Positions 2,602 through 43,379 of a DNA stretch of 64,000 bases are shown one piece after another (the stretch's first letter is position 1; the number at the start of each line of letters is the position of its first letter). The notes beneath the pieces were generated by a model. The model did not search any database. It saw only the letters and a program-made list of their open reading frames with translations, and was not told the DNA's origin. Source of the DNA: Candidatus Fermentibacterota bacterium (lineage in GTDB: Bacteria > Fermentibacterota > Fermentibacteria > Fermentibacterales > Fermentibacteraceae); assembly GCA_963718745.1 (NCBI GenBank), contig OY970370.1, positions 1,547,566 to 1,611,565 on the forward strand. Direction: 5' to 3'. Made by a program: the position numbers and the translations under genes.

Positions 2602-2630
2602 CACCAGTTCCAGGTTTAAATAAGCTTGAA
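2602..2630. promoter_or_regulatory. conserved 29-bp intergenic motif CACCAGTTCCWGGTTTAAAWWAGCTTGAA (copy 1)
   Basis: Near-identical copy at 43168..43196; contains the CCAG-TTC-CTGG palindrome; sits in the divergent region between the FGE gene and the lipoprotein gene. Confidence 0.35.
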
Positions 2631-2712
2631 TTGGGATTGTTAACGCTAGCGGGAGAAGTTATGCCATCATTCCGTGTTCATCATGGGTAAACGGTCGGAA
2701 TGGAGGTCGAGG

Positions 2713-3651
2713 ATGTCAGGAGGCTCCGATCCAGGTGAAAGGCACGGCCAGGTCCGGATGTCCCGTCAGTCAGGCACCGGCGTTCGCTTCCACGTTGCGC
2801 TCTTCTTCGTCGTTCTCGCAGCCGGCTGCGGAACAGGATCCCCTGGCGGCCCCGGTCCGGAGGAGAACGTCGGCTTCGCCGGCGTGCGCTCCTCCAGCTA
2901 CGGGGTCGATCCCTTCCCGGACCCGGCCGGCTGGGTGGACTGCATCCTCGCCATGTCCGACGCCTTCCCGGGCTCGACGCCGTCCGCCCTCTGGGTTGTG
3001 GGGACGGTCGACGAGGGGATTGGCGGGGTGAACCTGGAGTTCCCGACGCCGGACAGCCTAGTGTATCCGCATGTGAGCTTCTCGGACGAGGACCTGCACG
3101 AGGAGTACCTGGCCTGGTTCGACCAGTGCGGGGTGGAGGTGTTCCTGCAGGTCGAGCCCGGGTACGCGGATGTCGAAACGCTGATCTGCCTGGTCATGCA
3201 GCAGTACGGCGACCATCCCTGCGTCATAGGGTTCGGTGTCGACGTCGAGTGGCTCGGAAACGTCACCGAGGGCGGGGAGGGGACTCCGGTCGGCGATTCG
3301 ACGGCCGCCTCCTGGGAGAGCCTGATACATGGTTTCGATCCGGCGTACGGCCTGTTCCTCAAGCACTGGGACGCTTCGTTCATGCCCCCTTCGTACAGGG
3401 GGAGCATCATCTTCGTGGACGACGGCCAGGGCTACTCAGACATGGGGGCCTACCTGGACGACATGGGGGAGTGGGCGGAGACTTTCGCTCCGAACAGGGT
3501 CTTCTACCAGTACGGATACGAGGCCGACCGGCCCTGGTGGGAGGACCTGGAGTCACCTCCGATCGCCATCGGAGAGGCGCTGGCCGGGCAGACCGCCCAG
3601 GAGTGCGGCCTGTTCTGGGTGGACTTCAACCTATCCGAGCTGCAGCGCTAG
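2713..3651 (+). CDS. hypothetical lipoprotein
   Basis: ORF 2674..3651; ATG at 2713 has a GGAGG RBS; hydrophobic segment VALFFVVLAAGCG with lipobox. The start could also be 2674 or 2758. Confidence 0.6.
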   Translation: MSGGSDPGERHGQVRMSRQSGTGVRFHVALFFVVLAAGCGTGSPGGPGPEENVGFAGVRSSSYGVDPFPDPAGWVDCILAMSDAFPGSTPSALWVVGTVDEGIGGVNLEFPTPDSLVYPHVSFSDEDLHEEYLAWFDQCGVEVFLQVEPGYADVETLICLVMQQYGDHPCVIGFGVDVEWLGNVTEGGEGTPVGDSTAASWESLIHGFDPAYGLFLKHWDASFMPPSYRGSIIFVDDGQGYSDMGAYLDDMGEWAETFAPNRVFYQYGYEADRPWWEDLESPPIAIGEALAGQTAQECGLFWVDFNLSELQR

Positions 3652-3721
3652 TTCCGCGCTAGTTCCTGGTTTCAGATGCTTCAGATGCAGTCATATCACT
3701 ATGTATGGCTATGATTTAGCA

Positions 3722-4438
3722 TCAGTAACGAGTTTCCGATCTGAATGTTGATAGGAATTCTTCGAGTTCCATTCCGTATGTGCTCTCGAAAACATCATCA
3801 GGGTCGCTCCAGAACGTGTGCCGGGTCATGTACTCCTGGAATCTCTCGCGTCCGAACCTCTCGATGAGATTATTCACTATGAGGGCGAATTCGCAGTAGA
3901 TGAACGGCTGCCTGTACTCGACATCCAGTCCTACCTCATCCTCGGAATCGGTGCCAAAAACTGCAGGCGGCATCCAGTTGCCCGCCGCGATAAGCCTCAC
4001 GGTCTCCGCCGAATCCGGATAGAAGGTGGCGCCCATCTGGTCTGCACCGAGTGTCGCCATCCCCTCCATGAGCCATCGCGGATACCGGAGAGCGGCGATC
4101 AGATCCATGTGCTGATAGAGGAGAGTGTGCGACAGCTCGTGCGTGAGGTAGGTCTCCAGCGATATCAGGCCTTCCGCGTCCTCCCTGGAAGCCCATGGCG
4201 AGACCACGATGGAGCCTGAAGGGAAGGCGCAGAGCCTGGCTCTCGAGGGGGAGCGCCGGGAATAGGTCCCATCGTCGCCGAAGAGGAAGACCCTCGGCCT
4301 GGAGCTGAAATCGAGCCCGTGGAACTCCTCCACTCGCCGGGGGAGTGAGTCGATCCAGCCGGTGTCGCCGAAGTCGAATCCCTTCTGGGTGTAGACCGCA
4401 ACGCAGGGATAGTCGGTCCTGTCGAAGCCCACGATCAC
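3722..4438 (-). CDS. putative zinc metallopeptidase (HExxH), 5' end likely frame-disrupted
   Basis: ORF 3722..4438 (GTG); HELSH zinc-binding motif; the upstream in-frame stretch reads like a signal peptide but has no start, while an ATG with RBS lies at 4520 in another frame. Confidence 0.5.
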   Translation of the reverse strand: MIVGFDRTDYPCVAVYTQKGFDFGDTGWIDSLPRRVEEFHGLDFSSRPRVFLFGDDGTYSRRSPSRARLCAFPSGSIVVSPWASREDAEGLISLETYLTHELSHTLLYQHMDLIAALRYPRWLMEGMATLGADQMGATFYPDSAETVRLIAAGNWMPPAVFGTDSEDEVGLDVEYRQPFIYCEFALIVNNLIERFGRERFQEYMTRHTFWSDPDDVFESTYGMELEEFLSTFRSETRY

Positions 4439-4958
4439 CGGGGAGTAGGGGAAGAGCCTGCCCCAGACGAGAGCGTACGAGAGCCCGGGAGCAAGCAGGA
4501 GATTCCTGCTGCTGCCGCATGTGCGGTTCTCCAGCTCTTCCGGCTCTTGTCATCTCCATGCCCCCTGCGTCGTGCGAACCCGGTCTATCCGGCATCGCCG
4601 GGCTGTTCCTGGCGGGAAGGGAGGATTCAACTGTCCGCCGGCACGCCACGGCGGACAGTCCCTTCCGGGACCAGGACTATAGATTCCGGGACGGATGCGA
4701 GCAATAATGACCGGAATGGCGGATCACGCTTCTGGCCGGGAGAGTTGAGCGGTAAGGTTATAGCCTTCTGTGCCCCGGTGCCGCCCTTGCCTGGGAATAT
4801 CCGCACAGCAGCCGTTTGTGAACATCGCTCTGAAGAGCGCCTTGATGGCGGCTGCCATCATGAAGGAATCTTACTTGTCAGCGTGGGGCGGTTGGTGACC
4901 GCAGCGGCAGACAGGGAACAGGGCAGAGATAGTGCCCTGTCCCCCCAGAGAAGCGAAT

Positions 4959-5783
4959 CTAGCGGACTATCGCGAAAGTCGCCGAATCGAACGACTGCCC
5001 TGTGGATGCCGTGACCACATACGCTCCTGACGGGAGAGGGTTCCCGTCGTTGCCGCGGCCGTCGAAGTCGAAGTAAACCTCTTCTGTCGATGTCTGCACA
5101 CCATCGAGAGTTCGCACGCACCGACCCATGATGTCGATTACTTCGGCACCGACAGCTTCGGCGTCATCTCCACGGTAGCGGAAGACGAACGGGCCGGAGA
5201 TTGAGACCCTGGTTACACTCAGCCCGGCTTCGGAAGCAGGAAGAGGAATCCCGGCTGTAATCTCCGAGCCGTCGGAAAGGTTTTCAGGGAAGAACGGTCT
5301 GTACATGACGTCGTAGTTGGTGTGTCCGCTGCTGAGATAGGCCGCCCCTGCAGCGAAGAAATGCCCCGCCTCCGTGACACAGCCACCCATCTGATCGCAG
5401 GATGGGGCAGTTAATCCGAAGGAGCCCGTGTCGGCGCTTCCGACAAAGGAGTGAGTGAGTTCGAAGTCGTTGTTCAGCCTTCCGATCCAAATATACCATT
5501 CGTCTCCATCTCTTACCATGCCGGAGACCATGTAGCCCGCGGAGAACAGCTCGAAATCGTAGACTCTGATCCCATCGAAGGGATTCGGGGGATAGACTTT
5601 GTAATCCCTAAGGAAGTTCAGCGACTCGTCGAGGATAGTAATCGAGATGTATGCATCTGTATGCTGGAAGATGCCCTCCATGCTCTGAGTGGTGATCGGA
5701 TTGCCCATCACGACATAGCCGGGGGCTCCCGGAAGGGGAAATGATGTTCGATCTCCTGATACTGCTGACGATTGCGGCTTCAC
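4959..5783 (-). CDS. protein with T9SS/FlgD-like C-terminal sorting domain, possibly N-terminally truncated
   Basis: C-terminus EVYFDFDGRGNDGNPLPSGAYVVTASTGQSFDSATFAIVR resembles the Por-secretion C-terminal domain; no signal peptide, and the 5' end overlaps the divergent gene at 5741. Confidence 0.45.
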   Translation of the reverse strand: MKPQSSAVSGDRTSFPLPGAPGYVVMGNPITTQSMEGIFQHTDAYISITILDESLNFLRDYKVYPPNPFDGIRVYDFELFSAGYMVSGMVRDGDEWYIWIGRLNNDFELTHSFVGSADTGSFGLTAPSCDQMGGCVTEAGHFFAAGAAYLSSGHTNYDVMYRPFFPENLSDGSEITAGIPLPASEAGLSVTRVSISGPFVFRYRGDDAEAVGAEVIDIMGRCVRTLDGVQTSTEEVYFDFDGRGNDGNPLPSGAYVVTASTGQSFDSATFAIVR

Positions 5784-7354
5784 CGGTCAGGATTGCAGTC
5801 CTGGGTGACAGGACCGGGGGTCCGGACGACGAGGAATTCGAATCAGCCCTCGAGGCGGTCTCGATACTGGCTCCCGACCTGGTGATGAACGTGGGTGATC
5901 TCATCGACGGCTACACCGACGACACGGACGCCCTCGGCGGGCAGTGGGACCATGTCCTCGGCATGATCGACTCAACCCTGGGCGAACTCCCGTTCGTATT
6001 CGTCCCGGGCAATCACGACATCACCTACGACGAGGCCGAGGCCGTCTGGCTGGAGAGGACCGGGACAGGGCCAGACAGGACCGAATCGACCAGCGGTGTC
6101 GAGTTCATTGTCTGGGACACGTCCAGAGACGAGATCCTGGAGGCTGACGATCTGGACCGTCTCGCCGCCCTTCTCGAGGACGTCCGCCCCGGCGGTACAA
6201 CCATCCTCGCGACCCACAGGCCGTTCTGGATGATGTGGGAGACGGATCCGGAGATGGCTGCGAGGCTTCGCGCCATGGTCGCCGCAGCCGACGTGGAGGT
6301 AGTCATCGGGGGCCATATCCATACTTACGCGTGGGAGCAGGTCGACGGGGTCCACTACATTACGATGGGGACATCCGGAGGCGATTACGGGCAGGAGGAC
6401 ATCCAGGCGGGGTGCTTCCCCCAGGTGGGCTGGCTGACGCTGGACGGCGACGAAGCGGCATTCGCCCTCCTGGACCCCAGGTCGGTCCACCCTCTCGATC
6501 TCAACACTGTCATCGAGGAGACCCTGCTCTATCTCGCTACCACAAGGCTGCTCTCGCTCAGGCCTCTCGAGGATGCGCTCGAATCCGCCTCACTCACGGT
6601 GGAATCGATCGAGGACGTGGAGCGCACGGTCGGGATCGCGATCGACCCCGGTTGCTGGGGCTTCGATCCCGAGAGCGTTTCGGTGCTTCTCCCCCCCGGC
6701 GGTCAGGTGCCGGTGCACTTGAGCCAGAATCCGTCCGGAGCTGTCTTCCCCCTCCCCGTGCTGCACGTGAGCATTCCCTACGGTGACAGGGGCAAGATTG
6801 CGGAGTTCGATACGTGCTGGCCTGCGCTGAGGTCGATCGATGCTCCACGGGGCGTTGTGGATATCGACGGTACTGCTTTCCCGACCGAATACCCGGGTCC
6901 GGCCGAGACGCTGTTCGCAGGAGACGGCGGCATGCCGGCGCAGAACGGTCCAATGGAGGTCCTCATAGCCGATTCGGACGGCATGCTCTGCTTCCAGTCC
7001 AGGATGGGCCTGAGCCCGGACGGTCTGCTGGAGGACGAGTCGTTCGCGGTGGTCCTGTTTGCGGACGGCCTCTTCTGGAGGGTCAAGGTCTTCCCGGACG
7101 GCGGCGTCGATGCGATCTGCTACTCCGATGAAGGCATCGAGGAGTGGACGGAAGGATGGCAGGCCGTCTCGACAGTTTCGGAAGGCGGCTGGGAGGCCGA
7201 GATCGGGATCGACCCCGCTGCCGTCGGAGCTTCGGAGCCGGAGCTGCGCACGCACATCTACCGCCTGTCGACCAATGGGTACGCCACCTGGTCGTGGCCC
7301 CTCGAGTTCGACATGGAGGCTATGGGTCTCGTCTGCACGGAGCCGGGGATCTGA
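5741..7354 (+). CDS. metallophosphoesterase (calcineurin-like) family protein with C-terminal extension
   Basis: Motifs VLGDRTGG, GNHD, GGHIHTY; hydrophobic N-terminus. Confidence 0.75.
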   Translation: MMFDLLILLTIAASPVRIAVLGDRTGGPDDEEFESALEAVSILAPDLVMNVGDLIDGYTDDTDALGGQWDHVLGMIDSTLGELPFVFVPGNHDITYDEAEAVWLERTGTGPDRTESTSGVEFIVWDTSRDEILEADDLDRLAALLEDVRPGGTTILATHRPFWMMWETDPEMAARLRAMVAAADVEVVIGGHIHTYAWEQVDGVHYITMGTSGGDYGQEDIQAGCFPQVGWLTLDGDEAAFALLDPRSVHPLDLNTVIEETLLYLATTRLLSLRPLEDALESASLTVESIEDVERTVGIAIDPGCWGFDPESVSVLLPPGGQVPVHLSQNPSGAVFPLPVLHVSIPYGDRGKIAEFDTCWPALRSIDAPRGVVDIDGTAFPTEYPGPAETLFAGDGGMPAQNGPMEVLIADSDGMLCFQSRMGLSPDGLLEDESFAVVLFADGLFWRVKVFPDGGVDAICYSDEGIEEWTEGWQAVSTVSEGGWEAEIGIDPAAVGASEPELRTHIYRLSTNGYATWSWPLEFDMEAMGLVCTEPGI

Positions 7355-7396
7355 CCCCGGCTGTGTGTTGCGGGGCCGCCCCCGCGGTCTCCGGCC

Positions 7397-8449: not shown

Positions 8450-8600
8450 CTTCGGCTCGAGTTCGATGATAGATCCGAGGTCGGAATGGACCCGGTATCT
8501 GACGGATTTCAGAGGATCGCTTCACGAAATCCCCGGATTATCATCGGCCTCAGGCCCCGTTGTCACCTATCGAGAAGCCCGGGAACTTCGCCCCGTCGGA

Positions 8601-9253: not shown

Positions 9254-9840
9254 CACGCAGCCTCGACCTTCTGCACCGGGTTCCGCCGGACGAATCTCAC
9301 CAGGAGCAGGACGCCGACAACGAATATCGGCGCCCCTGTGGCCATGACGGGCCAGGTGTGGGGCTGGCCGAAGAACTGCGCGCCTGCGAAGTCGAGCACG
9401 GCCATGATTGCATAGACGTAGAACCTGCCTGCGGACTTTGCCCATGCGACCGCCGCCATGCTGACCGCCACGAAAAGGCCGAGCACTAGGGTCGCGTGAT
9501 TCGATACGGCTCCCAGCCAGGCAACAGGCTTGTCCGCGAAGAACAGAGCAAGGCCCAGGGGGATCGGCAGCAGGACGAGTAGCGCGATGAGCAGCACGCC
9601 CGTCCTCTCGCGGGCCCTGCGGTCCGCCGCGAACCTCACCCTTCCGACCCTGGGGGTCACGACGAACTTCCTGAGCAGTACGGCCAGAAGCAGGCAGTAT
9701 GTCGGGACGAGATAGGCTCCGACGGTGGCAAGGAGCCCGTACCCCAGCAGGCCTGCTCCGACCACGACGTCGAGTAACCCGCTCTCGCTCCTGACGGCAT
9801 AAGCCCTGCTCTCTATCTCCTTCAGATCAAGCGCATCCAT
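9253..9840 (-). CDS. hypothetical integral membrane protein
   Basis: ORF with multiple hydrophobic helices; first gene of a three-gene unit with the wHTH regulator. Confidence 0.6.
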   Translation of the reverse strand: MDALDLKEIESRAYAVRSESGLLDVVVGAGLLGYGLLATVGAYLVPTYCLLLAVLLRKFVVTPRVGRVRFAADRRARERTGVLLIALLVLLPIPLGLALFFADKPVAWLGAVSNHATLVLGLFVAVSMAAVAWAKSAGRFYVYAIMAVLDFAGAQFFGQPHTWPVMATGAPIFVVGVLLLVRFVRRNPVQKVEAA

Positions 9841-9850
9841 CTCCTACCCT

Positions 9851-18924: not shown

Positions 18925-18943
18925 CGGCTTTCTAGATCATCAT

Positions 18944-19184: not shown

Positions 19185-19565
19185 TCAGTCGCACACCCAC
19201 CAGCGACCGTCGATCAGAATCATCGCAATCTTGATGTTCGTGGCGAGGATCGAGGCTTCAGCGATATCGTCCCGCACTTCGACATAGACTTCGTAGTCGC
19301 CGGGCAGGTCGGGCATCCCGTCGATCTCCATCGCCTGCCTCAACTCGGCCCGCTGTTCGGGCAGGATCCAGAGCAGCGCAGCTTCCATGTCTTTCCGGTC
19401 TACGGCGTCATAGAAGATTTCGGCGACCATCACCGGATTCGATGTGTCGACCTCGGATTCGGTCGATTCCGCAAAGGAGTCCGTGCTCTCATTCCGGATG
19501 CTTCCGCAAGCCACAGAACCCATGATGAAGACGGAACATGCGAATGCTGCAGCTCTCGACGACAT
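19185..19565 (-). CDS. hypothetical lipoprotein
   Basis: Internal start MSSRAAAFACSVFIMGSVACGS (lipobox). Confidence 0.5.
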   Translation of the reverse strand: MSSRAAAFACSVFIMGSVACGSIRNESTDSFAESTESEVDTSNPVMVAEIFYDAVDRKDMEAALLWILPEQRAELRQAMEIDGMPDLPGDYEVYVEVRDDIAEASILATNIKIAMILIDGRWWVCD

Positions 19566-23755: not shown

Positions 23756-24053
23756 CCCCGTTTAAATTTTCACTGCATATCTGATCTCGCACGACATCAG
23801 ACCTGCGTCAAGCCCAACTTCCAGATCGCTTTGACTTCAGGTCCCAGCTCTGGTCGAAGGTTTCGCAGCAGTTTCTTTCGCTAGGCGGAAGACAGGAGTC
23901 ATTCACCTTGAATCCTTTTCATGACCGAGCAAGCTCTGGTTACTGCGGTGCAGTCCTCTGGAGGCACCGACCCTCCCGATCTGCCGGAAACCTGTAAATG
24001 TCCTGCCCGGGAAGCATATCCATCGTTTTCTACGATCCGATGAAGGGTAGGCA

Positions 24054-24082
24054 TTGACTCTACGTACGGCATTGCGTACGAT
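24054..24082 (+). promoter_or_regulatory. sigma70-like promoter TTGACT-N17-TACGAT with CGTACG-N6-CGTACG operator palindromes
   Basis: About 25 nt upstream of the antitoxin start; paired short palindromes in a toxin-antitoxin promoter are the expected autoregulation architecture. Confidence 0.45.
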
Positions 24083-24105
24083 ACAGAAGATAGAAAGGGG
24101 AGCGT

Positions 24106-24348
24106 ATGTCAGCGTTGAGCGCCACTGATGCAAGAGCCCGGCTGTACCGCCTCATCGACGAGGCGGCCGAGACTCATGAACCGATCCTGATAACCGGGAA
24201 GCGGAGTAACGCCATTCTCCTCTCGGAGGAGGACTGGCGTTCGATCCAGGAAACCCTGTTCCTGCTCTCGGTCCCCGGCATGCGCGAGAGCATCGTCGAG
24301 GGCATGAAGACACCGGTCGAGAAGTGCAGCGAGAAGCCCGGCTGGTGA
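24106..24348 (+). CDS. yefM: type II antitoxin, Phd/YefM family
   Basis: 80 aa; MSALSATDARARLYRLIDEAAETHEPILITGKRSNAILLSEEDWRSIQETLFLLSVPGM matches YefM; AAAGGGGA RBS. Confidence 0.85.
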   Translation: MSALSATDARARLYRLIDEAAETHEPILITGKRSNAILLSEEDWRSIQETLFLLSVPGMRESIVEGMKTPVEKCSEKPGW

Positions 24349-24608
24349 CCTGGCGCCTGGTCTACACTGCGCAGGCCCGGAAGGACGCGAAGAAGATCCA
24401 GGCAGCCAGCCTCCGGGAAAAGACGGAAGCTCTCCTCGAACTGATCGCGAAGGATCCTTGCGCCGCCCCTCCTCCCTTCGAGAGGCTCCTCGGTGACCTG
24501 AAGGGCGCGATATCCCGCAGGATCAACATCCAGCACAGACTTGTCTACCAGGTTCTCGAAGCAGAGAAGACCATCAAGGTCCTCAGGATATGGACGCACT
24601 TCGAGTAG
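24324..24608 (+). CDS. yoeB: type II toxin, YoeB/Txe family
   Basis: RLVYTAQARKDAKKI...RRINIQHRLVYQV...IWTHFE matches YoeB; the likely start is the GTG at 24345 overlapping the antitoxin stop. Confidence 0.85.
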   Translation: MQREARLVTWRLVYTAQARKDAKKIQAASLREKTEALLELIAKDPCAAPPPFERLLGDLKGAISRRINIQHRLVYQVLEAEKTIKVLRIWTHFE

Positions 24609-24705
24609 ACAGAATCAGCCCTCTGGAAGCATGACCGCCATGCCTTCTTGCCTGCCTGGACCCTCTTCCGTATCGTCACTTCTGGCGTATGCGAGAGGGG
24701 GGCGT

Positions 24706-25182
24706 ATGCGGATCGTCGCCGAAGTTCTCGGGCTAGTCACGATCTTCACTTTGATGCTCTCAGGATGCGGCAGTTATGAGGACGAAACCGTCATCTTCAC
24801 CAAGGTCCTCCCGGCTGACGTTCAGCAGCTCATGGACAACGGGTATCTCGACAGCGGGGGTGCAAACCCCATCCTTTATCCTGTCGAGGAAATGTGGGAA
24901 GACTTCTACTTCGCAGAAACCCCCGAGATGCTGGACTCCCTGTTCCAGGAATATCCTCCAGTTCTGGACAGCCTCTTCCCGGAAGGCGGCTCACTTCTGA
25001 TCCTGGACCTCCACACAGAAATTGAGGATGAAGTTCTAGGCTACTCTATGGAAGCCAGTTCTGACACAGTGCGGATATGTGTTGAGATAAGATACCGAGA
25101 TGTCGGAAGCCCTTATCCAGGGATTCGCGAGTGGGTTTTCCCGATGGGAGTTGTTCTTGATCCGGAGACTCCCGCTGAGTAG
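24706..25182 (+). CDS. hypothetical lipoprotein
   Basis: Internal start MRIVAEVLGLVTIFTLMLSGCGS with GAGAGGGGGG RBS. Confidence 0.55.
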   Translation: MRIVAEVLGLVTIFTLMLSGCGSYEDETVIFTKVLPADVQQLMDNGYLDSGGANPILYPVEEMWEDFYFAETPEMLDSLFQEYPPVLDSLFPEGGSLLILDLHTEIEDEVLGYSMEASSDTVRICVEIRYRDVGSPYPGIREWVFPMGVVLDPETPAE

Positions 25183-25307
25183 ACTGACGCCGACCAGCTG
25201 ACCTCGCGGACTTCCACACGGATGCAGTAGACGATCTCGCCTAAACCCCGTAATCTCAAAAGGCTTCAACATCCTGGGGCTGCTCAACAACCCGAAGAAG
25301 ACGGATG

Positions 25308-25640
25308 TGTCCCACGGGGATACGCAGCCCCCCGTGGACCGGTCGCGCGAACGAATCGAGCTGAATGGCAGTTGTGAGCGCGACAAGGCATCATCACGGT
25401 CGTTTCACGGAAACGACGATGCTGTGCTTATCTACTGGTGGTGATGATGCCTTTGCCACTTCCCGCAGGGAAGTGGCGGTCCTGGTCCTTTGTGGATGGA
25501 ACACCCTGATGGCCCAACTCGTGAAGATTGCGGCGTGGAGCAGAGTTTCGTAAGGTCTGCTCAGAATGTCCTCTACCCGCTCTGCTGCAAATAAGCCTCT
25601 CCTGGCCGGAGAAGTAATAGCCATGTCGGATTGGAGAATG
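25308..25640. repeat. mosaic intergenic repeat, copy A (includes a hairpin variant of the tRNA-Glu 3'-end motif)
   Basis: About 270 bp aligns with 27396..27650 at high identity; its 3' part matches copy D. Confidence 0.65.
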
Positions 25641-25794
25641 GCCTGAACAATGTGGATGGGATTGCAGGCCAGCTCGATTCCGGATGATCAATTCCCTCGA
25701 TGTTGACGACACTCACATCTGAACTTGCTGGCATGTCCTAGTCTAGGCATAGATAGAATACACTCGGCTTCGGTAATGGGCTGGAGGTGGAACG

Positions 25795-27285
25795 GTGTTG
25801 GCGCTCCTTTTACTTGCAGCGACCGCGAGTCCACCCGAGATCCTGTGGGCTGCCTGGTCCCCTGGCGGGATAGTTGATGTAGAGTGCGCCGGCTTCGTGA
25901 ATGGCGACTCCACCGAAGATGTCTTTGCCGCGTCAGATGAAGCCTCCGGGCATGGCATCATGTGCCTGGACGGGGCTACAGGTGGAATCATCTGGCTCAA
26001 CGACTCTCTTCCGGGAATCACTGGCACGGGTTGCCTCCGAGCTATCAGAGACGTGAATCTTGACGGAGTTCATGATGTTGCGGCAGGTTCATCGGCGAAT
26101 CCTGCGGTGGCTGTCTTCTCTGGAAGCACAGGTGAGATTCTGTGGAGCATTCCCCAGGAGTATCCGGTCTGTTGGATCGAGGCCGCCAATGGTCCTGGTC
26201 CCTCGGACGTCTACGTTCTTGTTAACCGACAGAACTCATACTGGACCAGTTGTGCCGCGCTTGTCGGTCAAACTGGAGCGCAGCAGTGGGCCACGCCTTA
26301 CGTGGCAACCACAGATCTCTGGCTAAGAGCGACTGAAGGTGACATCAACGGTACAGGCTGGTCCGAGTTCGGTATATCGGTTGACAGGGGATCTGTCAGC
26401 GGCGGATGGGCCGACGTGATGGACGGTTCGAATGGCGGCCTGATCCATCGAGAAAACACGATGTATTTCGGATCCATGGACGTATGCGACACGCCCATGC
26501 CGTTGATGGTCATGTCTCACTTCGGAACCTACCCCGTGACATGGGCGTACTCCTTTGTCTCGGGCACTGTAGTATGGCAGAGTTACAACCCGGATCTGGG
26601 TGGCGCCCAGCTCCAGATTCTCCCGAGCATCACCCAGCCTGCCACCCCGGATCGTGAGATCCTCGGATTCGGAAGCAGCAGCCACCTGGTCCTGTTCAGT
26701 TGTGATGAGGAATACACTGACGTTTTTGTTGAATACGTCTTTCCGAGCGCGATCAGGGCGGTTGACTATTTCTGTGAGGCTGCAACGTGGAGGGTTGCCT
26801 TGGTGACCTCGGCCAGATTCCATTGCCCCCTGCTGGACCTTTGGTCCCCACCTTCCACAGAGCCTTCAATCGCCTTGCCTAACGCGGATGCACAGGATCT
26901 TTGCCTGATCGAGTCGGTTCTCTCTCCGACACCACTCGTAGCTGTCGCAATGAAAGCAGCCGGACCAGGTGTCTGCGCGATTCGCACCACATGGCCCGAA
27001 GGCATCGAGGAGGAAAGCACAGCCCCCAATCTGGTCTTGAGCTCCTGTTCGCCTAGTCCTGGGACGGGGGAGTTCAGTCTCACCTGGTCATCCGGCATGG
27101 GGCCGACGGAGATCGGAGTCTATGAGGAATCCGGCAGACTCTGCCTCGATTGCGACCTGGGTCTGATGCCCGAAGGCGAACACTCCACACAGCTCGACCT
27201 GCAGGAAATGCCCTCCGGCTGCTATGTGGTCGTAGTCTCCTGTGGCACAGAGCGGGCCTCCACGAAGCTGGTTGTGCTCAGGTAG
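25795..27285 (+). CDS. secreted repeat protein with T9SS-like C-terminal domain
   Basis: GTG start with GGAGGTGG RBS; signal MLALLLLAATASPP; C-terminus GVYEESGRLCLDCDLG...PSGCYVVVVSCGTERASTKLVVLR. Confidence 0.7.
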   Translation: MLALLLLAATASPPEILWAAWSPGGIVDVECAGFVNGDSTEDVFAASDEASGHGIMCLDGATGGIIWLNDSLPGITGTGCLRAIRDVNLDGVHDVAAGSSANPAVAVFSGSTGEILWSIPQEYPVCWIEAANGPGPSDVYVLVNRQNSYWTSCAALVGQTGAQQWATPYVATTDLWLRATEGDINGTGWSEFGISVDRGSVSGGWADVMDGSNGGLIHRENTMYFGSMDVCDTPMPLMVMSHFGTYPVTWAYSFVSGTVVWQSYNPDLGGAQLQILPSITQPATPDREILGFGSSSHLVLFSCDEEYTDVFVEYVFPSAIRAVDYFCEAATWRVALVTSARFHCPLLDLWSPPSTEPSIALPNADAQDLCLIESVLSPTPLVAVAMKAAGPGVCAIRTTWPEGIEEESTAPNLVLSSCSPSPGTGEFSLTWSSGMGPTEIGVYEESGRLCLDCDLGLMPEGEHSTQLDLQEMPSGCYVVVVSCGTERASTKLVVLR

Positions 27286-27375
27286 GAGAGCCTCCGAAGC
27301 TGCTTCCCGATTCCGTGCTGTAGTGCGTCTGGCTGTCTGTATTAGCGCAAAATATTGCTGTATAACTGATTATAT

Positions 27376-27660
27376 GGTGGCGGTCCCACGGGGCAACGCA
27401 GTCCCCCGTGGACCGGTCGCGCGAACGATTCGAGATGGATAGCCGTTGTGAGCGCGACAAGGCATCATCACGTCGTTTCTCTGGGAACGACGATGCTGTG
27501 CTTATCTACTGGTGGTGATGATGCCTTTGCCACTTCCCGCAGGGAAGTGGCGGGCCTGGTCCTTCGTGGATGGAACACCCTGATGGCCCAGCTCATCAAG
27601 ATCGCAGCCTGGAGCGAGGTTTCGTGAGGGGCAGCTCAGGATGGTGTTATCAGCTCCAAT
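27376..27660. repeat. mosaic intergenic repeat, copy B (starts with a duplicate of the tRNA-Glu 3' terminus)
   Basis: TGGCGGTCCCACGGGG (revcomp = the last 16 nt of tRNA-Glu) followed by the CAACGCAGT-loop hairpin and about 250 bp shared with copy A. Confidence 0.65.
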
Positions 27661-27845
27661 TGGCCATCGATCCTCTACAGGATGGAGAAGTAGTAGCCAG
27701 AGGGGATTGGACCACCACGGTATCTTGCCATTGTTGTGTCTGGTCGACTACAGATCGCTGCCGTCAACCAACCGAGCTAGCTGGTTAGGATACTGGAGCT
27801 CCATGCCCCAGTTCTGAAGACCTTCCTAATGGAACAGCCAACCCA

Positions 27846-28931
27846 CTACTGCAGCTCGAAAATGTAGACCCGGGGCCACGAGCTGGCGAAAGGATTCCAG
27901 GCAAGAATCCCGCGATCTGTGATGCGGAAGATCATCAGCTCGTCGCCGGGGAGGCCACTGACAGCGGAGGTGAACTCCAGCGTGCCATCCGACCTATACA
28001 CGTCGAACTCAGGGTGGAAATAGGAACTGTGGTGCACCCAGACCCTTCCCAGGGAATCCTGGACCTGGATCCCGATCACACCCAGCTCCCTTGGATCAGG
28101 GCGCCAGGCCCCGCCCATGTTGTCACGGTACCGGCGCCAGAGGAGTTCCTCCTCTACTTCCAGAGAATCGCGGAAACCTGGTTCCCGGGGATTTTGAAGA
28201 GTATCCAGGGGGGTACCGTCCTGCGCTAAAACTAGGACACGATTGTTGACGCCAGAGAGGGCCACATATATGTGCCCGTCACTATCTGTAGTTACTGCAG
28301 GCTGTCCGGCATAAAGCTCGTAGAGATCCTCGGGATTGATGCTGATCTGCTGAAGTGAGCTAAAGGTAGTGGTTATCTCTCCGGTGTCGATGCTCCACCG
28401 GGACAAGTCCATAGAAAGCGTGAGATCGCCATTCTGATCCGCAGTGAGATTCCCGGCCCAGCCGAGAGCGGAGCTGTCTGGAAGGATACTCAGCTGATCG
28501 ATGACCGAATTTCCGGGGAGTGTGACGGAACGCACCGTTGCCAAATCAGCTCGGTAGTACACAAATCGTCGAAGGTAGTATTCGTATAGGACGAAGCCTT
28601 CGCCGAATGGCGTTATCCCACCGATGTGATTGTATTCCAAAGGGCCATTGCCCAGATTCTTGACCCGGCTGATGCAGAGACCATCCGGAGAAAACAGACG
28701 CAGATCCTGATACGCCCCGTCCGCAACCAGTATGTTTCCGTCCGGTATGAAGAATGCCCCAGCGACTTTGCCCAGTAAAAGGTTGCTATCTCCGATTTCA
28801 ACTCCGATGGAATCGACAACTCGCAGTTCTCTGTATGTGATCGGATCATCGGTTGCTGGTGTGGGTCCTTTGCAGGCGATAGCCATAAGGATCAATGGCC
28901 CGCCTGAAACAAGGAAATATCCACTTCTCAT
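27846..28931 (-). CDS. hypothetical lipoprotein, beta-propeller-like
   Basis: Start MRSGYFLVSGGPLILMAIACKG (lipobox) with GGAGG RBS; repetitive beta-rich sequence. Confidence 0.65.
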   Translation of the reverse strand: MRSGYFLVSGGPLILMAIACKGPTPATDDPITYRELRVVDSIGVEIGDSNLLLGKVAGAFFIPDGNILVADGAYQDLRLFSPDGLCISRVKNLGNGPLEYNHIGGITPFGEGFVLYEYYLRRFVYYRADLATVRSVTLPGNSVIDQLSILPDSSALGWAGNLTADQNGDLTLSMDLSRWSIDTGEITTTFSSLQQISINPEDLYELYAGQPAVTTDSDGHIYVALSGVNNRVLVLAQDGTPLDTLQNPREPGFRDSLEVEEELLWRRYRDNMGGAWRPDPRELGVIGIQVQDSLGRVWVHHSSYFHPEFDVYRSDGTLEFTSAVSGLPGDELMIFRITDRGILAWNPFASSWPRVYIFELQ

Positions 28932-29149
28932 CCCGCTAATCACCTCCAGTCTGCAATATCATCAGTTTCGCAGCTCTGCCTGTCTAGTTACAGGGATCGA
29001 AGTCCAATCCGGGGAAGGTCAGCATTCCGAGCTTCAGAACCCGGGGACCGTTAATGCGATCCTTCAAGACAAGGACGAGCTGCTTGCACGACCAGGCATC
29101 GTCATGGTCGTTTTAGGAAACGACGGCTCTGAGCTTGTAACCAGTTGGT

Positions 29150-29650
29150 GATGATGCCTTTGCCACTTCCCATGGGGAGGACGCTCAGGCCCTCTCGCGG
29201 CTCGTCTCTTCAGTTTCGCAAGGCGAAACTGATACTTAGCAGAACACTCCAGTTCCGCGAAGCGAAAATGGTACGTAGCGCAACAGCATGGTTCCCGAAG
29301 GGAACCTGCGAGTGCGCGTGTCTGTGTTACCAGGGAACCTGCAAGTGTGCGTGAATGTCGTTGAAGGCTTTACCGCTCTCGCAGGTCCGCTTCGCGGACC
29401 GTGCTGCCGCTAAACTCATCCCTCTTCGCGGGATTCGAGACCTGTCGGGCCAGGTCATTCCCGCAGACGCGGGAATGACCGTGGCGGTCCCACGGGGCAA
29501 CGCAGTCCCCCGTGGACCTGCCGTGAGAGCTTCGTGCGAATACTGTGAGCCTGCGAGCACGGCGCAGGGACGACACGGTTGTTGCCGGAGGGAACGACCA
29601 TTCAACCGTTATGTCTTCGAGGTGTCGTCACTGCTGCCACTTGCCGGAGG
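29150..29650. repeat. mosaic hairpin-rich repeat block, copy C, directly downstream of tRNA-Glu
   Basis: Contains a second duplicate of the tRNA-Glu 3' end (~29482..29497), the hairpin GGTCATTCCCGC-AGAC-GCGGGAATGACC, and units shared with copies D and E. Confidence 0.65.
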
Positions 29651-29654
29651 CAAG

Positions 29655-29730
29655 TGGCGGTCCCACGGGGAATCGAACCCCGGTTTGATGGCTGAGAACC
29701 ACCCGTCCTAGACCTCTAGACGATGGGACC
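29655..29730 (-). tRNA. tRNA-Glu (anticodon CUC)
   Basis: Revcomp GGTCCCATCGTCTAGAGGTCTAGGACGGGTGGTTCTCAGCCATCAAACCGGGGTTCGATTCCCCGTGGGACCGCCA; cloverleaf with TTCTCAG anticodon loop; CCA encoded. Confidence 0.9.
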
Positions 29731-35924: not shown

Positions 35925-35936
35925 CGGTGGGACCCC

Positions 35937-38888: not shown

Positions 38889-38891
38889 GCG

Positions 38892-39536
38892 TCAGCCCCT
38901 CAGCCTGGAGAGGCGGTCGGAGTCTATGTGGTCGAACTCCGAGTTGATCCTGTAGATGGCTATGCCCATCACGAACACGGCCACGAACATGTCCATCAGG
39001 ACGCCGATCTCCACGAGGAAGGGGACGTCCCTGACGAGTGCCAGGCTGAACGCGTAGATGCCGTTCTCGAGGACCAGGTAGCCCAGGACCTGGTTGACTG
39101 CGGTCCGCCTTGCGACAAGCAGGAAGAGCCCCGTGGACATGAGCGTGAACGAGACTGGGACCATCATGGCGGCGGATGACTGCCGGGGCAGGTCCAGCCT
39201 CCCGTCCAGCCAGAAGGAGGCGGAGAGGGCCAGGACGCCTATCAGGAGAGACGGCACGTACCCGACGAAAGGCTTGACCTCGCGGCTGGTCGCGGACTCC
39301 CTCAGGGCCTTCCTCAGCAGGTTCGGGAACACGAAGCCCTTGAGGGCGAAAACGGCAAGGCCGAGAACCGCTATCCTTATCGAAAGGCCGTCCTCCGCGG
39401 TCACGACGGGCAGCAGGCCGACCAGCATCCCCTGCCAGGCTGCGGTCCTTATGCAGTTCCCGAGCCTGCTCGAGCCGAGCAGCACGAAGTTGGAGAGCAT
39501 GAGGCCCACGAGCACGAGGTCCATCCAGGCCGTCAC
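38892..39536 (-). CDS. HyfE-like small membrane subunit
   Basis: 214-aa polytopic membrane protein in operon position and size matching hydrogenase-4 component E. Confidence 0.7.
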   Translation of the reverse strand: MTAWMDLVLVGLMLSNFVLLGSSRLGNCIRTAAWQGMLVGLLPVVTAEDGLSIRIAVLGLAVFALKGFVFPNLLRKALRESATSREVKPFVGYVPSLLIGVLALSASFWLDGRLDLPRQSSAAMMVPVSFTLMSTGLFLLVARRTAVNQVLGYLVLENGIYAFSLALVRDVPFLVEIGVLMDMFVAVFVMGIAIYRINSEFDHIDSDRLSRLRG

Positions 39537-40453
39537 GGTATGAACCTCGATGCCAGGATGAAGGCGAGTACCGACAGCGCGCCCGCCGCCGCGAGGAGCT
39601 GGGGTGCCCTGGTCAGGCTCAGCCTAGCCATCACTGATTCGGCGACGCCGACGAGAACCCCTGTCAGGAGCATGACACCCAGGAAGGCGGCGAGGTATGG
39701 ATATCCCCCGAGCCCGAAGGGGGAGAGGAGCAGGCCTGCGAACAGGGAGCCGAAGAGCCAGAGCTTGAGCGAGGCGCCGTATGTCACCAGGGCGAAGTCC
39801 GGGCCTGAGCTGTCGAGGACCATCACCTCGTGGACCATCGTCAGTTCAAGGTGGGTGTCGGGGTCGTCGAAGGGGATCCTCGAGTTCTCGGCGAGCAGGA
39901 TTATGAAGAACGACACCGCCACCAGCGCGGGAGCGGTTTCCGCGGAGATCCAGCCTGCGCTCCCCAGGCCCGCGAACATGCCCGGGAGGGAAGCGGAGCC
40001 CGAAATCCTCGACAGCGCCGCGAGACCGGTCAGCAGGGCCGGTTCCGCCAGGGCCGAATAGAGTACCTCCCGGCTCGCGCCCATCCCCTCGAAGCTGGAG
40101 CCGCAGTCCAGTGCCGCTGCGACAGTGAAGAACCTTGACAGACCGAGGATGTACGCGAAGAAGATCATGTCTCCCGCGAATCCCCAGCCGGGCTGGTTCC
40201 CGGCGGGCGCAAGGATCACGAGCGAGGCGAGGACGCATGCTATCGAAAGAGACGGGGCGAGCTTGAAGATCCATGTCGATGTGGAACTGAAGACGGCGCC
40301 CTTCCGCAGCAGCTTGGAGATGTCGCGGTACTGCTGGAGGAGGGGCGCGCCCCTCCTTCCGGCGAAGACGGCCTTGGTCCTGTTCACGACCCCTGCGAGC
40401 AGGGGGGCCAGCAGGAGCCCCGCGAAGACGAACAGCAGACCCTCGGTGCTCAT
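39533..40453 (-). CDS. HyfC/HycD/NuoH-like membrane subunit
   Basis: 306-aa polytopic protein with NuoH-like conserved acidic/aromatic loops; 4-nt overlap with the next gene. Confidence 0.8.
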   Translation of the reverse strand: MSTEGLLFVFAGLLLAPLLAGVVNRTKAVFAGRRGAPLLQQYRDISKLLRKGAVFSSTSTWIFKLAPSLSIACVLASLVILAPAGNQPGWGFAGDMIFFAYILGLSRFFTVAAALDCGSSFEGMGASREVLYSALAEPALLTGLAALSRISGSASLPGMFAGLGSAGWISAETAPALVAVSFFIILLAENSRIPFDDPDTHLELTMVHEVMVLDSSGPDFALVTYGASLKLWLFGSLFAGLLLSPFGLGGYPYLAAFLGVMLLTGVLVGVAESVMARLSLTRAPQLLAAAGALSVLAFILASRFIP

Positions 40454-40466
40454 CGCCGCGCCCCCG

Positions 40467-42455
40467 TCAGAGCTTCCACGCCAGCAGTGCGAAGAGCGCC
40501 GCGACGATGTAGAGGATGTAGAGGTTCACCCTGCCGTGCTGTATCACCCTGAATCGGGAGAAGACGCGCTCCAGGGCGGAGAAGACGGGTCTGTACAGCC
40601 CGTCCTGATAGACATCCGGCGTCTCGGTGGAGAAGGAGGATTCCGCCGGGAACAGGCCGTCCGGTTCCACGAAGCTCCTGCGCCTCCGGAGGATTCCTCC
40701 GAAGAGGCGGACGATCGGCTCGGCGAATGACGACGCAGTGTACTGCATCGACGGGGCGGGCGACCGGAATCCGCAGCCCCAGGTGGGCGCGACGGCAGTT
40801 GTGCGCCTCCTGAGGATTGCCGTCCTCGCCCAGTAGATCGCCGCCGATGCCAGTATCAGGGCGCCCGAGAAGAGTGCGGCCGCCGTCAGGGCATCTCCGG
40901 GCTGCCCCGCCGGTCCGGCGGCGCTGCCGAAGCCCGTGACGAGCCCGGACACGACGGGGCGCAGGAAACCCGCCATGAAGCGGCCCGAGAGGCCGAGCAG
41001 CAGGCAGAGAGAAGCGAGGACCGTCATCGGGAGCCGCATCGAAAGAGGGGTTTCCCCGGCTCTCGACGCGCAGGCGCTGCGCGGCTCCCCGAGGAAGACT
41101 ATGCCGAAGGCCTTCGTGAAGCAGGCCAGGGCGAGGCCGCCCGTCAGGGCCAGGCCGCCCGCGGCCAGCAGGCCGGCCGTGGCACCTGCATGCGAGGAGG
41201 CTGCCGCCTGTGTGATGCCGGAGAATGCGGACAGGTAGACGAGCAGCTCGCTCGCGAATCCGTTGAAGGGCGGCAGCCCGCAGATCGCTATGCTGCCCGC
41301 GAGGAAGCAGATGCCCGTGACCGGCATCGTCCTGAGAAGGCCTCCGAGGTGGTCCAGCTCGCGGGTGCCGGTCTGCTTCAGCACCGCTCCGGCCCCCATG
41401 AACAGGAGGCTCTTGAACAGGGCGTGGTTTATGACGTGGAAGAGGCCTCCCGCGAAGCCGAGGAAGGCCATTGCAGGTATGTCGTAGCTGATCCCGAGGA
41501 AGCCTAGCCCGAGGCCCATCCCGATGATCCCGATGTTCTCCACGCTGTGGTAGGCGAGAAGGCGCTTGAGATCGTGCTGTGCGATGGCCGAGAGCACGCC
41601 GACCAGCGCCGAGACCATGCCGGACAGCAGGAGCACCCATCCCCACCAGGGAGGCGGGGGGCCCAGGAACAGGAGGAAGCGGAGGAGCCCGTATATCCCT
41701 GTCTTGATCATCACGCCGCTCATCACCGCGGACACTCCCGAGGGGGCCGAGGGATGCGCCTCGGGGAGCCAGACATGGAGGGGGACGAATCCCGCCTTGG
41801 TGCCGAAGCCTGCGAAGGCCAGCACGAACGCGACTCCTGCGGGACCCCCCGCCGGCAGGGCGAGCCTAGAGAAATCCAGCGAACCGCCACGGCCCAGGAT
41901 GGCGAACAGAGCAAGCAGGCAGGCTGTGCCGAGGTGTGTGGCTACGAGGTAGATCCAGCCGGATCTCCGGACATCGCCCTCGACGGCGTCGTGCATGACC
42001 AGGAAGAAAGACGCGATGGCCATGACCTCCCAGCCGAGGAGGAACAGGAGCGCGTTCCTGGAGACGGTGACGAGCAGCATCCCGAAGGCGAGCAGGTTGA
42101 AGAATCCCCAGTAACCGGCCCGGTGCCTGCCCGTCCCCGCCGGGCGCCCGAGGTATCCGATGCTGTAGACGGCCGCAAGGGACGAGACCAGCAGGATGGG
42201 GATCGTGAACAGGGCGGACAGAGGATCCATGCCCAGGACCAGCCCGCCCGACGGCATGTCCCAGGGGATGACCGAGGATTCTACCGGGCCATCGAAGAAT
42301 GCGAGGATGGCGGCGGCGATGCCCGGGAGGCTGCCTGCCACGGCCGCGATCGGACCTGCCGTCCTCGAGGCTCCGAACCTGTCGGGGATGGCGAAGGAGA
42401 CCAGAGCCCCGGCCAGGAATGTGCAGAGTGACGCGACTAGCAGTCCGATGATCAT
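40467..42455 (-). CDS. HyfB/HycC/NuoL-like antiporter-type membrane subunit
   Basis: 662 aa; conserved NuoL-family segments (LGWEVMAIASFFLV, FGTKAGFVPLHVWLPEAHPSAPS, HALFKSLLFMGAGAV). Confidence 0.85.
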   Translation of the reverse strand: MIIGLLVASLCTFLAGALVSFAIPDRFGASRTAGPIAAVAGSLPGIAAAILAFFDGPVESSVIPWDMPSGGLVLGMDPLSALFTIPILLVSSLAAVYSIGYLGRPAGTGRHRAGYWGFFNLLAFGMLLVTVSRNALLFLLGWEVMAIASFFLVMHDAVEGDVRRSGWIYLVATHLGTACLLALFAILGRGGSLDFSRLALPAGGPAGVAFVLAFAGFGTKAGFVPLHVWLPEAHPSAPSGVSAVMSGVMIKTGIYGLLRFLLFLGPPPPWWGWVLLLSGMVSALVGVLSAIAQHDLKRLLAYHSVENIGIIGMGLGLGFLGISYDIPAMAFLGFAGGLFHVINHALFKSLLFMGAGAVLKQTGTRELDHLGGLLRTMPVTGICFLAGSIAICGLPPFNGFASELLVYLSAFSGITQAAASSHAGATAGLLAAGGLALTGGLALACFTKAFGIVFLGEPRSACASRAGETPLSMRLPMTVLASLCLLLGLSGRFMAGFLRPVVSGLVTGFGSAAGPAGQPGDALTAAALFSGALILASAAIYWARTAILRRRTTAVAPTWGCGFRSPAPSMQYTASSFAEPIVRLFGGILRRRRSFVEPDGLFPAESSFSTETPDVYQDGLYRPVFSALERVFSRFRVIQHGRVNLYILYIVAALFALLAWKL

Positions 42456-42463
42456 CGCTGGCT

Positions 42464-43165
42464 CTACCGGCGCTTGTCCTGCGCCCGCGAGAGGAGCATG
42501 CCGTCGACCAGGGCGGCCTGCTCGAGGATCTCCGGTTCGGGGCAGCGCCTGGAGACCGATTCGATGAACGGAGGCTGTCTGAGTGCGAAGGCCAGCCTGG
42601 AGAGGAGGTCGAGATGCGAGTTGACCGTCGGGCTTATCATCATGAAGAGGGTGTCGACAGGCCTGCCGTCGAGGGCTCCGAACTCTATCCCGCGCTCCAG
42701 GAAGGAGAGCGTGATGATCGGCCGGGGTATGTCCAGGACGATCGGATTGCGCACGTGGGGGATGGCTATCCCGTCCCCGATGCCCGTCGAGGCGAGGGCT
42801 TCACGGGCTTCGAGGATCTGCAGGAGGTACTTCCTGTCCGCGCTTTCCGGAACGGGCATCAGGGCTAGCGTCGCTTCGAGGACCGAGTGGCGGTCGCCGC
42901 CGGTTACGCCGTACCGGATTCCTCCGGCCTGGAGGGCGTCCCGGAGACCCCACGCCCCGGCCGGGTCATCCGATCCAGCCCCGGAGAAGAGCCCGGAGGC
43001 GAGGGGGATCTGCCTGCGCGTGGCCCACTCCAGAAGCTCGGTGCGGTTGAAGCGGTACTGCCCGCCCACCTTGACCGCGGGCAGGGCATCCTCGCGTATC
43101 CAGCGGAGGAGGGTCTTCTCCGGCACCCCCATGATCCCCGCGGCCTCTCTCATCCCAAGCTGCAT
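42464..43165 (-). CDS. MerR/excisionase-type HTH fused to PTS EIIA(Ntr)-like domain, putative regulator
   Basis: Start MQLGMREAAGIMGVPEKTLLRWIRE (HTH); C-terminal EIIA-2-like region with GIAIPH; ends 8 nt before the first gene of the hyf-like operon. Confidence 0.65.
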   Translation of the reverse strand: MQLGMREAAGIMGVPEKTLLRWIREDALPAVKVGGQYRFNRTELLEWATRRQIPLASGLFSGAGSDDPAGAWGLRDALQAGGIRYGVTGGDRHSVLEATLALMPVPESADRKYLLQILEAREALASTGIGDGIAIPHVRNPIVLDIPRPIITLSFLERGIEFGALDGRPVDTLFMMISPTVNSHLDLLSRLAFALRQPPFIESVSRRCPEPEILEQAALVDGMLLSRAQDKRR

Positions 43166-43167
43166 GG

Positions 43168-43196
43168 CACCAGTTCCTGGTTTAAAATAGCTTGAA
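43168..43196. promoter_or_regulatory. conserved 29-bp intergenic motif (copy 2)
   Basis: Differs at three positions from 2602..2630; abuts the start codon of the MerR-EIIA gene. Confidence 0.35.
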
Positions 43197-43379
43197 AACG
43201 GTCGGTAAAATATTGATGGGCAGAGAGATGAGAGAAAAACAGATCTGGCTGCGTCTCTCCGCTCGAACTGCCATATAACTAACCGTACTCCGGGTCTGCT
43301 GCAAGGTCGAACAAGGCCCATTCCTGGTTTCAGATCCCTCATTCCGGCTGAGCCGGAATGAGCAGGTAGCACATCAGCA

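Follow-up and report, generated by a model that had tools for sequence, protein, structure and literature searches.

Why should short non-coding sequences recur, almost letter for letter, in separate intergenic regions of one bacterial genome? The question is raised by a 64-kb stretch of DNA (hereafter the window) from a Candidatus Fermentibacterota bacterium (contig OY970370.1, positions 1,547,566 to 1,611,565), in which the 29-mer CACCAGTTCCAGGTTTAAATAAGCTTGAA at 2602-2630 reappears as CACCAGTTCCTGGTTTAAAATAGCTTGAA at 43168-43196, both on the + strand, and a related shorter sequence lies near each of them. An earlier examination of the letters alone, here called the sequence-only reading, had taken these sites for a transcription-factor site or a lineage-specific promoter element. 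We consider it likely that all four are instead solo copies of the terminal inverted repeat (TIR) of a TIRtron, that is, of a TIRYT gene, a Y1/HUH transposase gene resembling the REP-associated tyrosine transposases (RAYTs) of repetitive extragenic palindromes (REPs), standing between inverted repeats. The repeat, whose host is here Candidatus Fermentibacteria, matches the published TIRtron/TIRYT class; it fits the class because gene type, inverted arrangement, non-hairpin unit and dispersed copies all agree.

The repeat and the transposase gene that it encloses

The arrangement that gives the repeat its identity is found in three related loci (loci of relatives are designated L and proteins P), where two copies face each other as inverted arms: in L022 at 3130-3163/4308-4341 (34 nt, 97% complementary), in L024 at 355-388/1542-1575 (34 nt, 91% complementary) and in L039 at 3888-3914/5065-5091 (27 nt, 93% complementary). 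Each pair encloses about 1.15 kb with a single open reading frame (ORF) of 321-349 aa, which passes the Pfam Y1_Tnp model (30-34 bits, cutoff 23), contains the HUH (NHFHLL) and catalytic-tyrosine (YIHLNP) motifs and scores 67 bits, under the cutoff of 80, with the NCBIfam model for REP-associated tyrosine transposases, REP_Tyr_transpos. The C-terminus of three of the proteins (P0249, P0250 and P0246) has sub-threshold matches to Bac_DnaA_C (14-20 bits, cutoff 31.5) and to the helix-turn-helix (HTH) family HTH_23 (about 15 bits), and P0264, a 35%-identical homologue, reaches 26 bits with Bac_DnaA_C, for which the cutoff is 31.5. Homologues of the transposase at 35-38% identity combine PF08299 with PF01797 and are named RayT by JGI, and many have a precomputed PF08299 match; a sequence search for a homologue of solved structure found none. 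The orthologue in the source genome is P0250 (72% identity, Y1_Tnp 34 bits), encoded on the 2,522,402-nt contig that also encodes P0001, a protein identical to the HTH_17 and PTS_EIIA_2 protein beside one of the window copies. The three loci have their neighbours in common, an ArsB-like permease gene on one side of the TIRtron and a glycosyltransferase gene on the other, and in every contig set the transposase gene occurs once and in synteny; the shared neighbours indicate that it is single-copy and vertically inherited, as RAYTs are.

This set of features corresponds to a class described by Di Nocera et al. (2013), who reported RAYT-like genes located between long terminal inverted repeats and lacking REP hairpins, named them TIRtrons or TIRYTs, and noted that some genomes have "moderately abundant families of TIRs" dispersed as singles, dimers and clusters (PMC3733652). 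Quentin et al. (2018) assign the majority of TIRYTs to TnpAY1 subclass 2.1, whose members have a C-terminal domain like Bac_DnaA_C, HTH_23 or HTH_28 and no REP, and describe a TIR motif, GGGGWSAS, which is unlike DnaA boxes and is common to many, not all, published TIRs (PMC6006769). The element described here is like these in its RAYT-like Y1/HUH gene of about 320-350 aa, its C-terminal region, which by the sub-threshold matches may be DnaA-C/HTH-like, its non-hairpin inverted repeats of about 30 nt, its single-copy syntenic gene and its moderately abundant intergenic copies, which are solo, paired or clustered. It is unlike them in that GGGGWSAS is absent (the outer consensus is cccCGGyCGrTTCCTGG) and tandem 9-mers TTCAGATGC, two or three in number, are found instead, in its tip duplications and in a diverged, co-resident 29-mer subvariant, and in its host. 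The Y1/HUH catalytic core (Pfam Y1_Tnp) is also that of the IS200/IS605 insertion sequences; those, however, have subterminal hairpins, no TIRs and multiple copies of the whole element, whereas here there are TIRs, a single-copy syntenic gene and dispersal of the ends only. Miniature inverted-repeat transposable elements (MITEs) are similarly short and non-coding, with the TIR of an autonomous element at either end, and L032 provides an example, a transposase-less inverted pair of 34 nt around 708 nt, but most copies of the present family are single, unpaired ends, and the four of the window are all of this kind.

Aligning 26 distinct copies gives a family consensus which, read inward from its outer end, is cccCGGyCGr-TTCCTGGTTTCAGAT-GC-TTCAGAT-GCAGyCGTAA....TG and in which the 9-mer TTCAGATGC stands twice, or in some copies three times, in tandem. 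When metagenomes were scanned with ATCTGAANNATCTGAAACCAGGAA, 16 contigs with about 12 distinct flanking contexts were found, and a collection with a single genome for each species, scanned with TTCCTGGTTTCAGATNNTTCAGAT, gave 15 loci, of which eight exact matches are in Candidatus Fermentibacteria bacterium RA.bin127, five in the metagenome-assembled genome (MAG) SRP192927_co6_414 and one contig each in two other MAGs; by our estimate, chance would give about 0.07 matches to this pattern in the genome collection. The last two, which match the pattern of 22 specified bases exactly, are L028, a contig of an Alphaproteobacteria MAG (3728-3751), and L037, a contig of a Lachnospiraceae MAG (1590-1613). 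Because of the low chance expectation these single matches are probably real homologues, and misbinned Fermentibacteria-like contigs are a more likely source for them than horizontal spread. The standard type pattern had 0 matches in IMG/VR. The window itself holds two clear and two diverged copies.

The location of the copies relative to genes differs from what a promoter element would lead one to expect: no consistent position upstream of genes emerged when the 27 family copies whose outer side faces a called gene were mapped. For 13 of them the outer end is 2-22 nt past a co-directional stop codon, often between convergent genes, and in six it is at most 26 nt from a divergent start codon. 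Inverted doublets of the repeat are present in L012 and L017. The outer tip is in some cases repeated in tandem together with a few flanking bases, with two units in the window (3645-3666), five in L011 and three in L039. No target-site duplication was identified.

The copies in the window and their orthologous sites

We name the four copies by their position: c1 (2602), h1 (3663), c2 (43168) and h2 (43321), where c-type denotes the 29-mer variant and standard type the copies bearing TTCCTGGTTTCAGAT. All four have the same orientation and belong to one repeat family (Table 1). The family profile cited there is an nhmmer model built from the alignment of 26 copies.

Table 1. Repeat copies in the window and the duplication at the tip of h1
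Feature	Positions	Strand	Description
c1	2602-2630	+	Diverged c-type solo copy; divergent intergenic region, with an FGE-sulfatase gene (1722-2552, -) on one side and a lipoprotein gene (2713-3651, +) on the other
Tandem 11-nt duplication	3645-3666	+	GCGCTAGTTCC x2; takes in both the stop codon of the lipoprotein gene (3649-3651) and the tip of h1 on its outer side
h1	3653-3707	+	Standard solo copy, TTCCTGGTTTCAGAT GC TTCAGAT GCAGTCATATCAC; family profile E = 8.6e-14
c2	43168-43196	+	c-type solo copy; family profile score weak, E = 0.83
h2	43311-43341	+	Standard solo copy, CCCATTCCTGGTTTCAGATCCC; family profile E = 2.1e-06; 147 nt beyond c2

The recurrence of the 29-mer with three mismatches stands as it had been reported: c1 and c2 are identical at 26 of 29 positions, their identity breaks off abruptly at either edge, and 100 dinucleotide-preserving shuffles gave no match. 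The shorter related sequence, which had been given as a 16-mer at two sites, needs some correction. Its two occurrences are real, since the 15-mer TTCCTGGTTTCAGAT is exact at 3663-3677 and 43321-43335 on the + strand, but the coordinates were slightly off and the first base of the 16-mer differs, with GTTCCTGGTTTCAGAT at 3662-3677 and ATTCCTGGTTTCAGAT at 43320-43335, where the latter has A and not G. At two mismatches or fewer the 15-mer has three matches in the window against 0.06 expected, the third (43174) falling within the c2 29-mer. In a low-stringency self-comparison the site at 3656-3685 aligns to the full 29-mer with one gap (GCGCTAGTTCCTGGTTTCAGAT-GCTTCAGA against GCACCAGTTCCTGGTTTAAAATAGCTTGAAA). 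As a consequence, the four sites are copies of one element of about 30-50 nt, and the separate half-motif that had been proposed disappears.

The surroundings of the four copies are different. c1 is in a divergent region, and a search for relatives of its neighbours at 90% identity or more found none. h1 starts 11 nt past the stop codon of the lipoprotein gene and stands between a convergent gene pair (the next gene is 3722-4438, -). The outer end of c2 is 2 nt from the ATG (43165) of a gene on the - strand (42464-43165) encoding an HTH_17 and PTS_EIIA_2 protein, the first gene of a hyf-like operon, so that the reported contact of one copy with the start of the EIIA gene was correct. The inner side of h2 borders an array of hairpin-bearing units of about 125 nt that reaches tRNA-Ser (43864-43956, -).

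Comparison with relatives gives these positions a history. In L005, whose HTH-EIIA protein is within the same 90% cluster, the c2 position is occupied by the standard type ATTCCTGGTTTCAGAT, 18 nt of it identical to h2 of the window, and both h2 and one adjoining repeat unit are missing (an indel of about 96 nt). In L006 and L007, whose lipoproteins are 83% and 78% identical to that of the window, the alignment columns of c1 are occupied by the standard type CCATTCCTGGTTTCAGAT(C/T)CTTCAGATTGC, within an intergenic region of 77% mean column identity. The h1 position of L006 has three TTCAGATGC units, compared with two in the window, and a single copy of the 11-nt tip sequence; in L007 the repeat is absent from this position. 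Read from these alignments, the repeat sites are old and positionally stable, yet polymorphic.

The c-type, which contains TTTAAAWWAGCTTGAA, was seen in the source genome only, at both loci, and both orthologous sites in close relatives are of the standard type. Its pattern had 0 matches in the GTDB species representatives, 0 in IMG/VR and 0 in 258 kb of related loci. Although their loci are unlinked, c1 and c2 have six or more derived changes relative to the standard type in common, and their identity stops at the unit boundaries. These shared changes, together with the standard type in relatives, point to copying or gene conversion between the two loci and suggest that the c-type is a diverged subvariant transferred unit-wise within the source genome.

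Proposed mechanism and competing explanations

The following course of events would be compatible with these observations. The TIRYT, through its putative DnaA-C/HTH-like C-terminus, would recognise the tandem 9-mers of the TIR; it would then nick and rejoin DNA at the outer tip, by which solo copies would be spread or homogenised; and copies would build up where they are tolerated, just outside coding regions and mostly a few bases past stop codons. Effects on neighbouring genes such as the HTH-EIIA/hyf-like operon and the lipoprotein gene, if there are any, would be secondary. Signs of end processing are the number of 9-mers (two or three), the outer-tip duplications and the presence or absence of copies between close strains. 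The tandem 9-bp units are a candidate HTH site because domain IV of DnaA binds 9-bp boxes (PMC6006769). A more specific version, which we put forward only tentatively, is that the two or three TTCAGATGC units are double-stranded binding sites of the DnaA-C-like HTH ("DnaA-box-like iterons") and that the enzyme is active, nicks the outer tip leaving GGAAC(N6-7) duplications and copies single ends between loci; an active end-copying enzyme of this kind would account for identical c-type units at two unlinked sites.

Several points weigh against the assignment of the four sites to a TIRtron. The three transposase loci are orthologous, so that in evolutionary terms the arrangement counts once and not as three separate cases. 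It was read in related genomes, and P0250 as annotated is without about 20 N-terminal residues that its relatives have. The family profile gives c2 only the weak score of Table 1 and does not find c1, so that the c-type is assigned to the family by its orthologous position in no more than one or two relatives at each locus and, for c1, also by its identity to c2. The position statistics use our heuristic gene calls, with several sites checked by eye. To our knowledge, transposition, cleavage or binding has been demonstrated for no TIRYT.

The idea with which the question began, that the motif is a regulatory site, either an operator (for example for autoregulation by the HTH_17-EIIA protein) or a lineage-specific promoter, defining a small regulon with the hyf-like operon and the lipoprotein/FGE-sulfatase pair, now appears improbable, although some features speak in its favour. 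c2 abuts the start codon of the HTH_17-EIIA gene and c1 lies in a divergent promoter region, the motif position is retained at both loci in relatives of 78-90% protein identity, and the c-type pair is identical over more bases than a neutral relic needs. c2 also has a promoter-like match on the + strand (TTAAAA-18-TAAAAT, 9/12; the L005 equivalent is TTCAGA-17-TATAAC), but this is directed away from the HTH-EIIA gene and from any protein-coding gene, and the promoter scan found no -35/-10 match at c1 or h1. Moreover, two of the four window copies are located, like 13 of the 27 mapped, after stop codons or between convergent genes, the identical sequence serves as the inverted terminal repeat of a transposase gene, and the motif was not found upstream in the orthologous HTH-EIIA/hyf loci L003/L004 (72%) and L001 (68%), L001 and L003 representing a genus-level relative. 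By our reading, no -35/-10, sigma-54, extracytoplasmic function (ECF) or Bacteroidetes-type architecture fits every copy in one orientation; sigma-54, ECF (GGAAC / TGAAAC), sigma-32 (CTTGAAA) and Bacteroidetes -33/-7 promoters were each rejected, the downstream element or the spacing being inconsistent among copies. An archaeal promoter with TFB recognition element (BRE) and TATA box, followed by a leaderless mRNA, which TTTAAATA had brought to mind, was discarded too, the host being bacterial, Candidatus Fermentibacter-like, with TTGACN-17-TATAAT promoters. The clear promoters of the window are in fact of this ordinary type, as upstream of tRNA-Met (TTGACC-17-TATATT), tRNA-Ser (TTGACT-17-GATAAT) and the gene at 9840 (TTGACA-17-TATACT). 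What survives of the sequence-only reading is therefore a non-random, recurrent intergenic element characteristic of Fermentibacteria genomes and metagenomes, without the promoter or transcription-factor site as its general explanation. Within the TIRtron assignment some regulatory activity is conceivable: by our reading of the 26-copy alignment a loosely conserved TA(A/T)NNN lies 17 nt past the first TTCAGA and could serve the element as a weak promoter directed inward, and, as a rarer case, a c-type copy may have been exapted as operator or promoter of the HTH-EIIA/hyf-like operon. For c2, beside the HTH-EIIA gene, such a secondary role is a small residual possibility.

The remaining explanations concern the nature of the repeat. 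The REP and REPIN sequences of Proteobacteria (Nunvar 2010; Bertels and Rainey 2011, PMC3116915; Ton-Hoang 2012) are alike in that a domesticated single-copy Y1 transposase stands between the repeat that it presumably mobilises, repeats are mostly downstream of genes and subfamilies are lineage-specific. That the window copies are classical REPs or REPINs, hairpin-forming imperfect palindromes mobilised by a RAYT and acting as 3' mRNA stabilisers or terminators, would agree with the RAYT-like gene and its REP_Tyr_transpos match, with the preferred location downstream of genes and with the inverted doublets (L012, L017, L032). REPs, however, are imperfect palindromes of 20-40 nt with a GTAG or CGTC tag, recognised as hairpins in single-stranded DNA, and the sequence folds no better than chance: as single-stranded DNA the consensus has z-scores of +0.5 and +0.7 on the two strands, 140-151 of 200 shuffled sequences equalling or surpassing it, and the window 29-mers have 0.0 and -1.3, no better than shuffled sequence. 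The internal palindromes that had been thought conserved belong to one copy each, CCAG..CTGG being complementary in the 43168 copy only and AAGCTT present in the 2602 copy only. Neither tag occurs in the alignment of 26 copies, the transposase scores under the NCBIfam family cutoff and the terminator scan gave nothing at the repeat sites. With hairpin and terminator both lacking support from folding and scan, we regard this alternative as very unlikely. No known RNA family was found around any copy at gathering or E <= 5 thresholds. Hardly any weight can be given to the proposal that the copies are relics of local duplication or gene conversion without mobile-element or functional basis, or attachment (att) repeats of an island of about 40 kb (2.6-43.2 kb). 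The 29-mers are indeed direct repeats 40.5 kb apart, one of them close to tRNA-Ser, and their parallel derived changes suggest gene conversion; but the repeat is present at many unrelated loci of other genomes, it does not overlap the tRNA gene, and relatives with the same flanking genes have a repeat at both 29-mer positions, so that these positions are no junctions of a recent insertion and att sites beside tRNA-Ser were rejected.

Neighbouring sequences and implications

The neighbourhood of the copies contains other features. Between h2 and the 3' end of tRNA-Ser, a second repeat family (43338-43862) consists of about four tandem units of about 120-130 nt with strong hairpins, for example GGTCGTTCCTGC-GCTT-GCAGGAACGACC and CTCATTCCGGCT/AGCCGGAATGAG. 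Its paralogues are at 29175-29472 of the window (after tRNA-Glu), L005 57-141, L017 ~1673-1748 and L026 ~6923-6983; in L012, similar units follow what is, judged by eye, probably a tRNA gene. The number of units differs between the window and L005, and the family has no Rfam match. In the spacer between tRNA-Ser and the HTH-EIIA gene of L003 (7640-7850; the same in L004, 230-440), a near-perfect inverted repeat of about 32 bp, ccggtgtcagaggaaaaaatgtcaagtaatca ... tgattacttgacattttttcctctgacaccgg, surrounds about 120 nt of AT-rich DNA; here another, MITE-like insertion of a different kind has hit the same hotspot. The 124 nt between c2 and h2 (43197-43320) are about 80% conserved in L005, with folding z-scores of -1.3 (- strand) and -2.0 (+ strand), and a - strand TTGCAG-17-TAGTTA at about 43303-43275 is present in L005 too; this segment could be the 5' leader of the HTH-EIIA/hyf-like operon or a small antisense RNA.

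Around c1, a block of about 50 nt (2553-2601; ctccgatgaagcct..gaatatc..ctccgccccc) that separates the copy from the - strand start codon is also found, conserved, in L006 and L007. The gene behind it is not the same, since in the window its product has an FGE-sulfatase domain and in L006/L007 it is a 352-aa MDEAA.RCTRC.. protein, and this combination of conserved block and different gene points to gene replacement behind a retained upstream region. A protein from Candidatus Fermentibacter sp. is 71% identical to the lipoprotein whose gene separates c1 from h1. Type IX secretion (Por_Secre_tail) signals are present in relatives. A 19-mer, TTCCGT(G/C)TTCATCATGGGT, is found at 2670-2688 (+) and 19518-19536 (-), identical at 18 of 19 positions, each time in the 5' region of another gene; the frame at 19518-19536 spells ..VFIMGSVAC.., the end of a lipoprotein signal peptide, and the annotated starts at the 19-mer sites may be too far downstream. 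GTTTAAATTTTCA (23760-23772), one of 17 AT-rich patches in the window and 14 nt upstream of the start of a 603-aa gene (23746, -), has GTTTAAAT in common with c1 and is too short to count as a copy of the repeat.

Elsewhere in the window, the 3' end of tRNA-Glu, CCCCGTGGGACCGCCAC, occurs at 29481-29497 and 29654-29670 (-), repeated about 170 nt downstream of the gene in the manner of an attachment-site duplication. The stretch of about 5.7 kb at ~24000-29700 has a GC content of 0.57, compared with 0.62-0.69, and few ORFs with host-like codon usage, and it encodes a predicted lipoprotein of 365 aa (27846-28943, -); it may be the remnant of an integrated element.

If the four sites are TIR copies, a conspicuous conserved non-coding motif is accounted for without regulation, which is a warning against annotating such motifs as promoters or operators in Fermentibacteria. 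The repeats nevertheless come to within a few bases of start or stop codons, among them the start codon of the regulator gene at the head of a hyf-like hydrogenase operon, and may have side-effects on expression. The little-studied TIRYT/TIRtron class gains an example from an uncultured candidate phylum of the Fibrobacteres-Chlorobi-Bacteroidetes (FCB) group, with a full set of parts, namely an autonomous-looking locus, a transposase-less pair, solo ends, variation in unit number, tip duplications and a diverged subvariant, that could be used for studying how HUH enzymes recognise and process ends. Should the iteron proposal be true, TIRYTs would gain a concrete, testable substrate and cleavage site.

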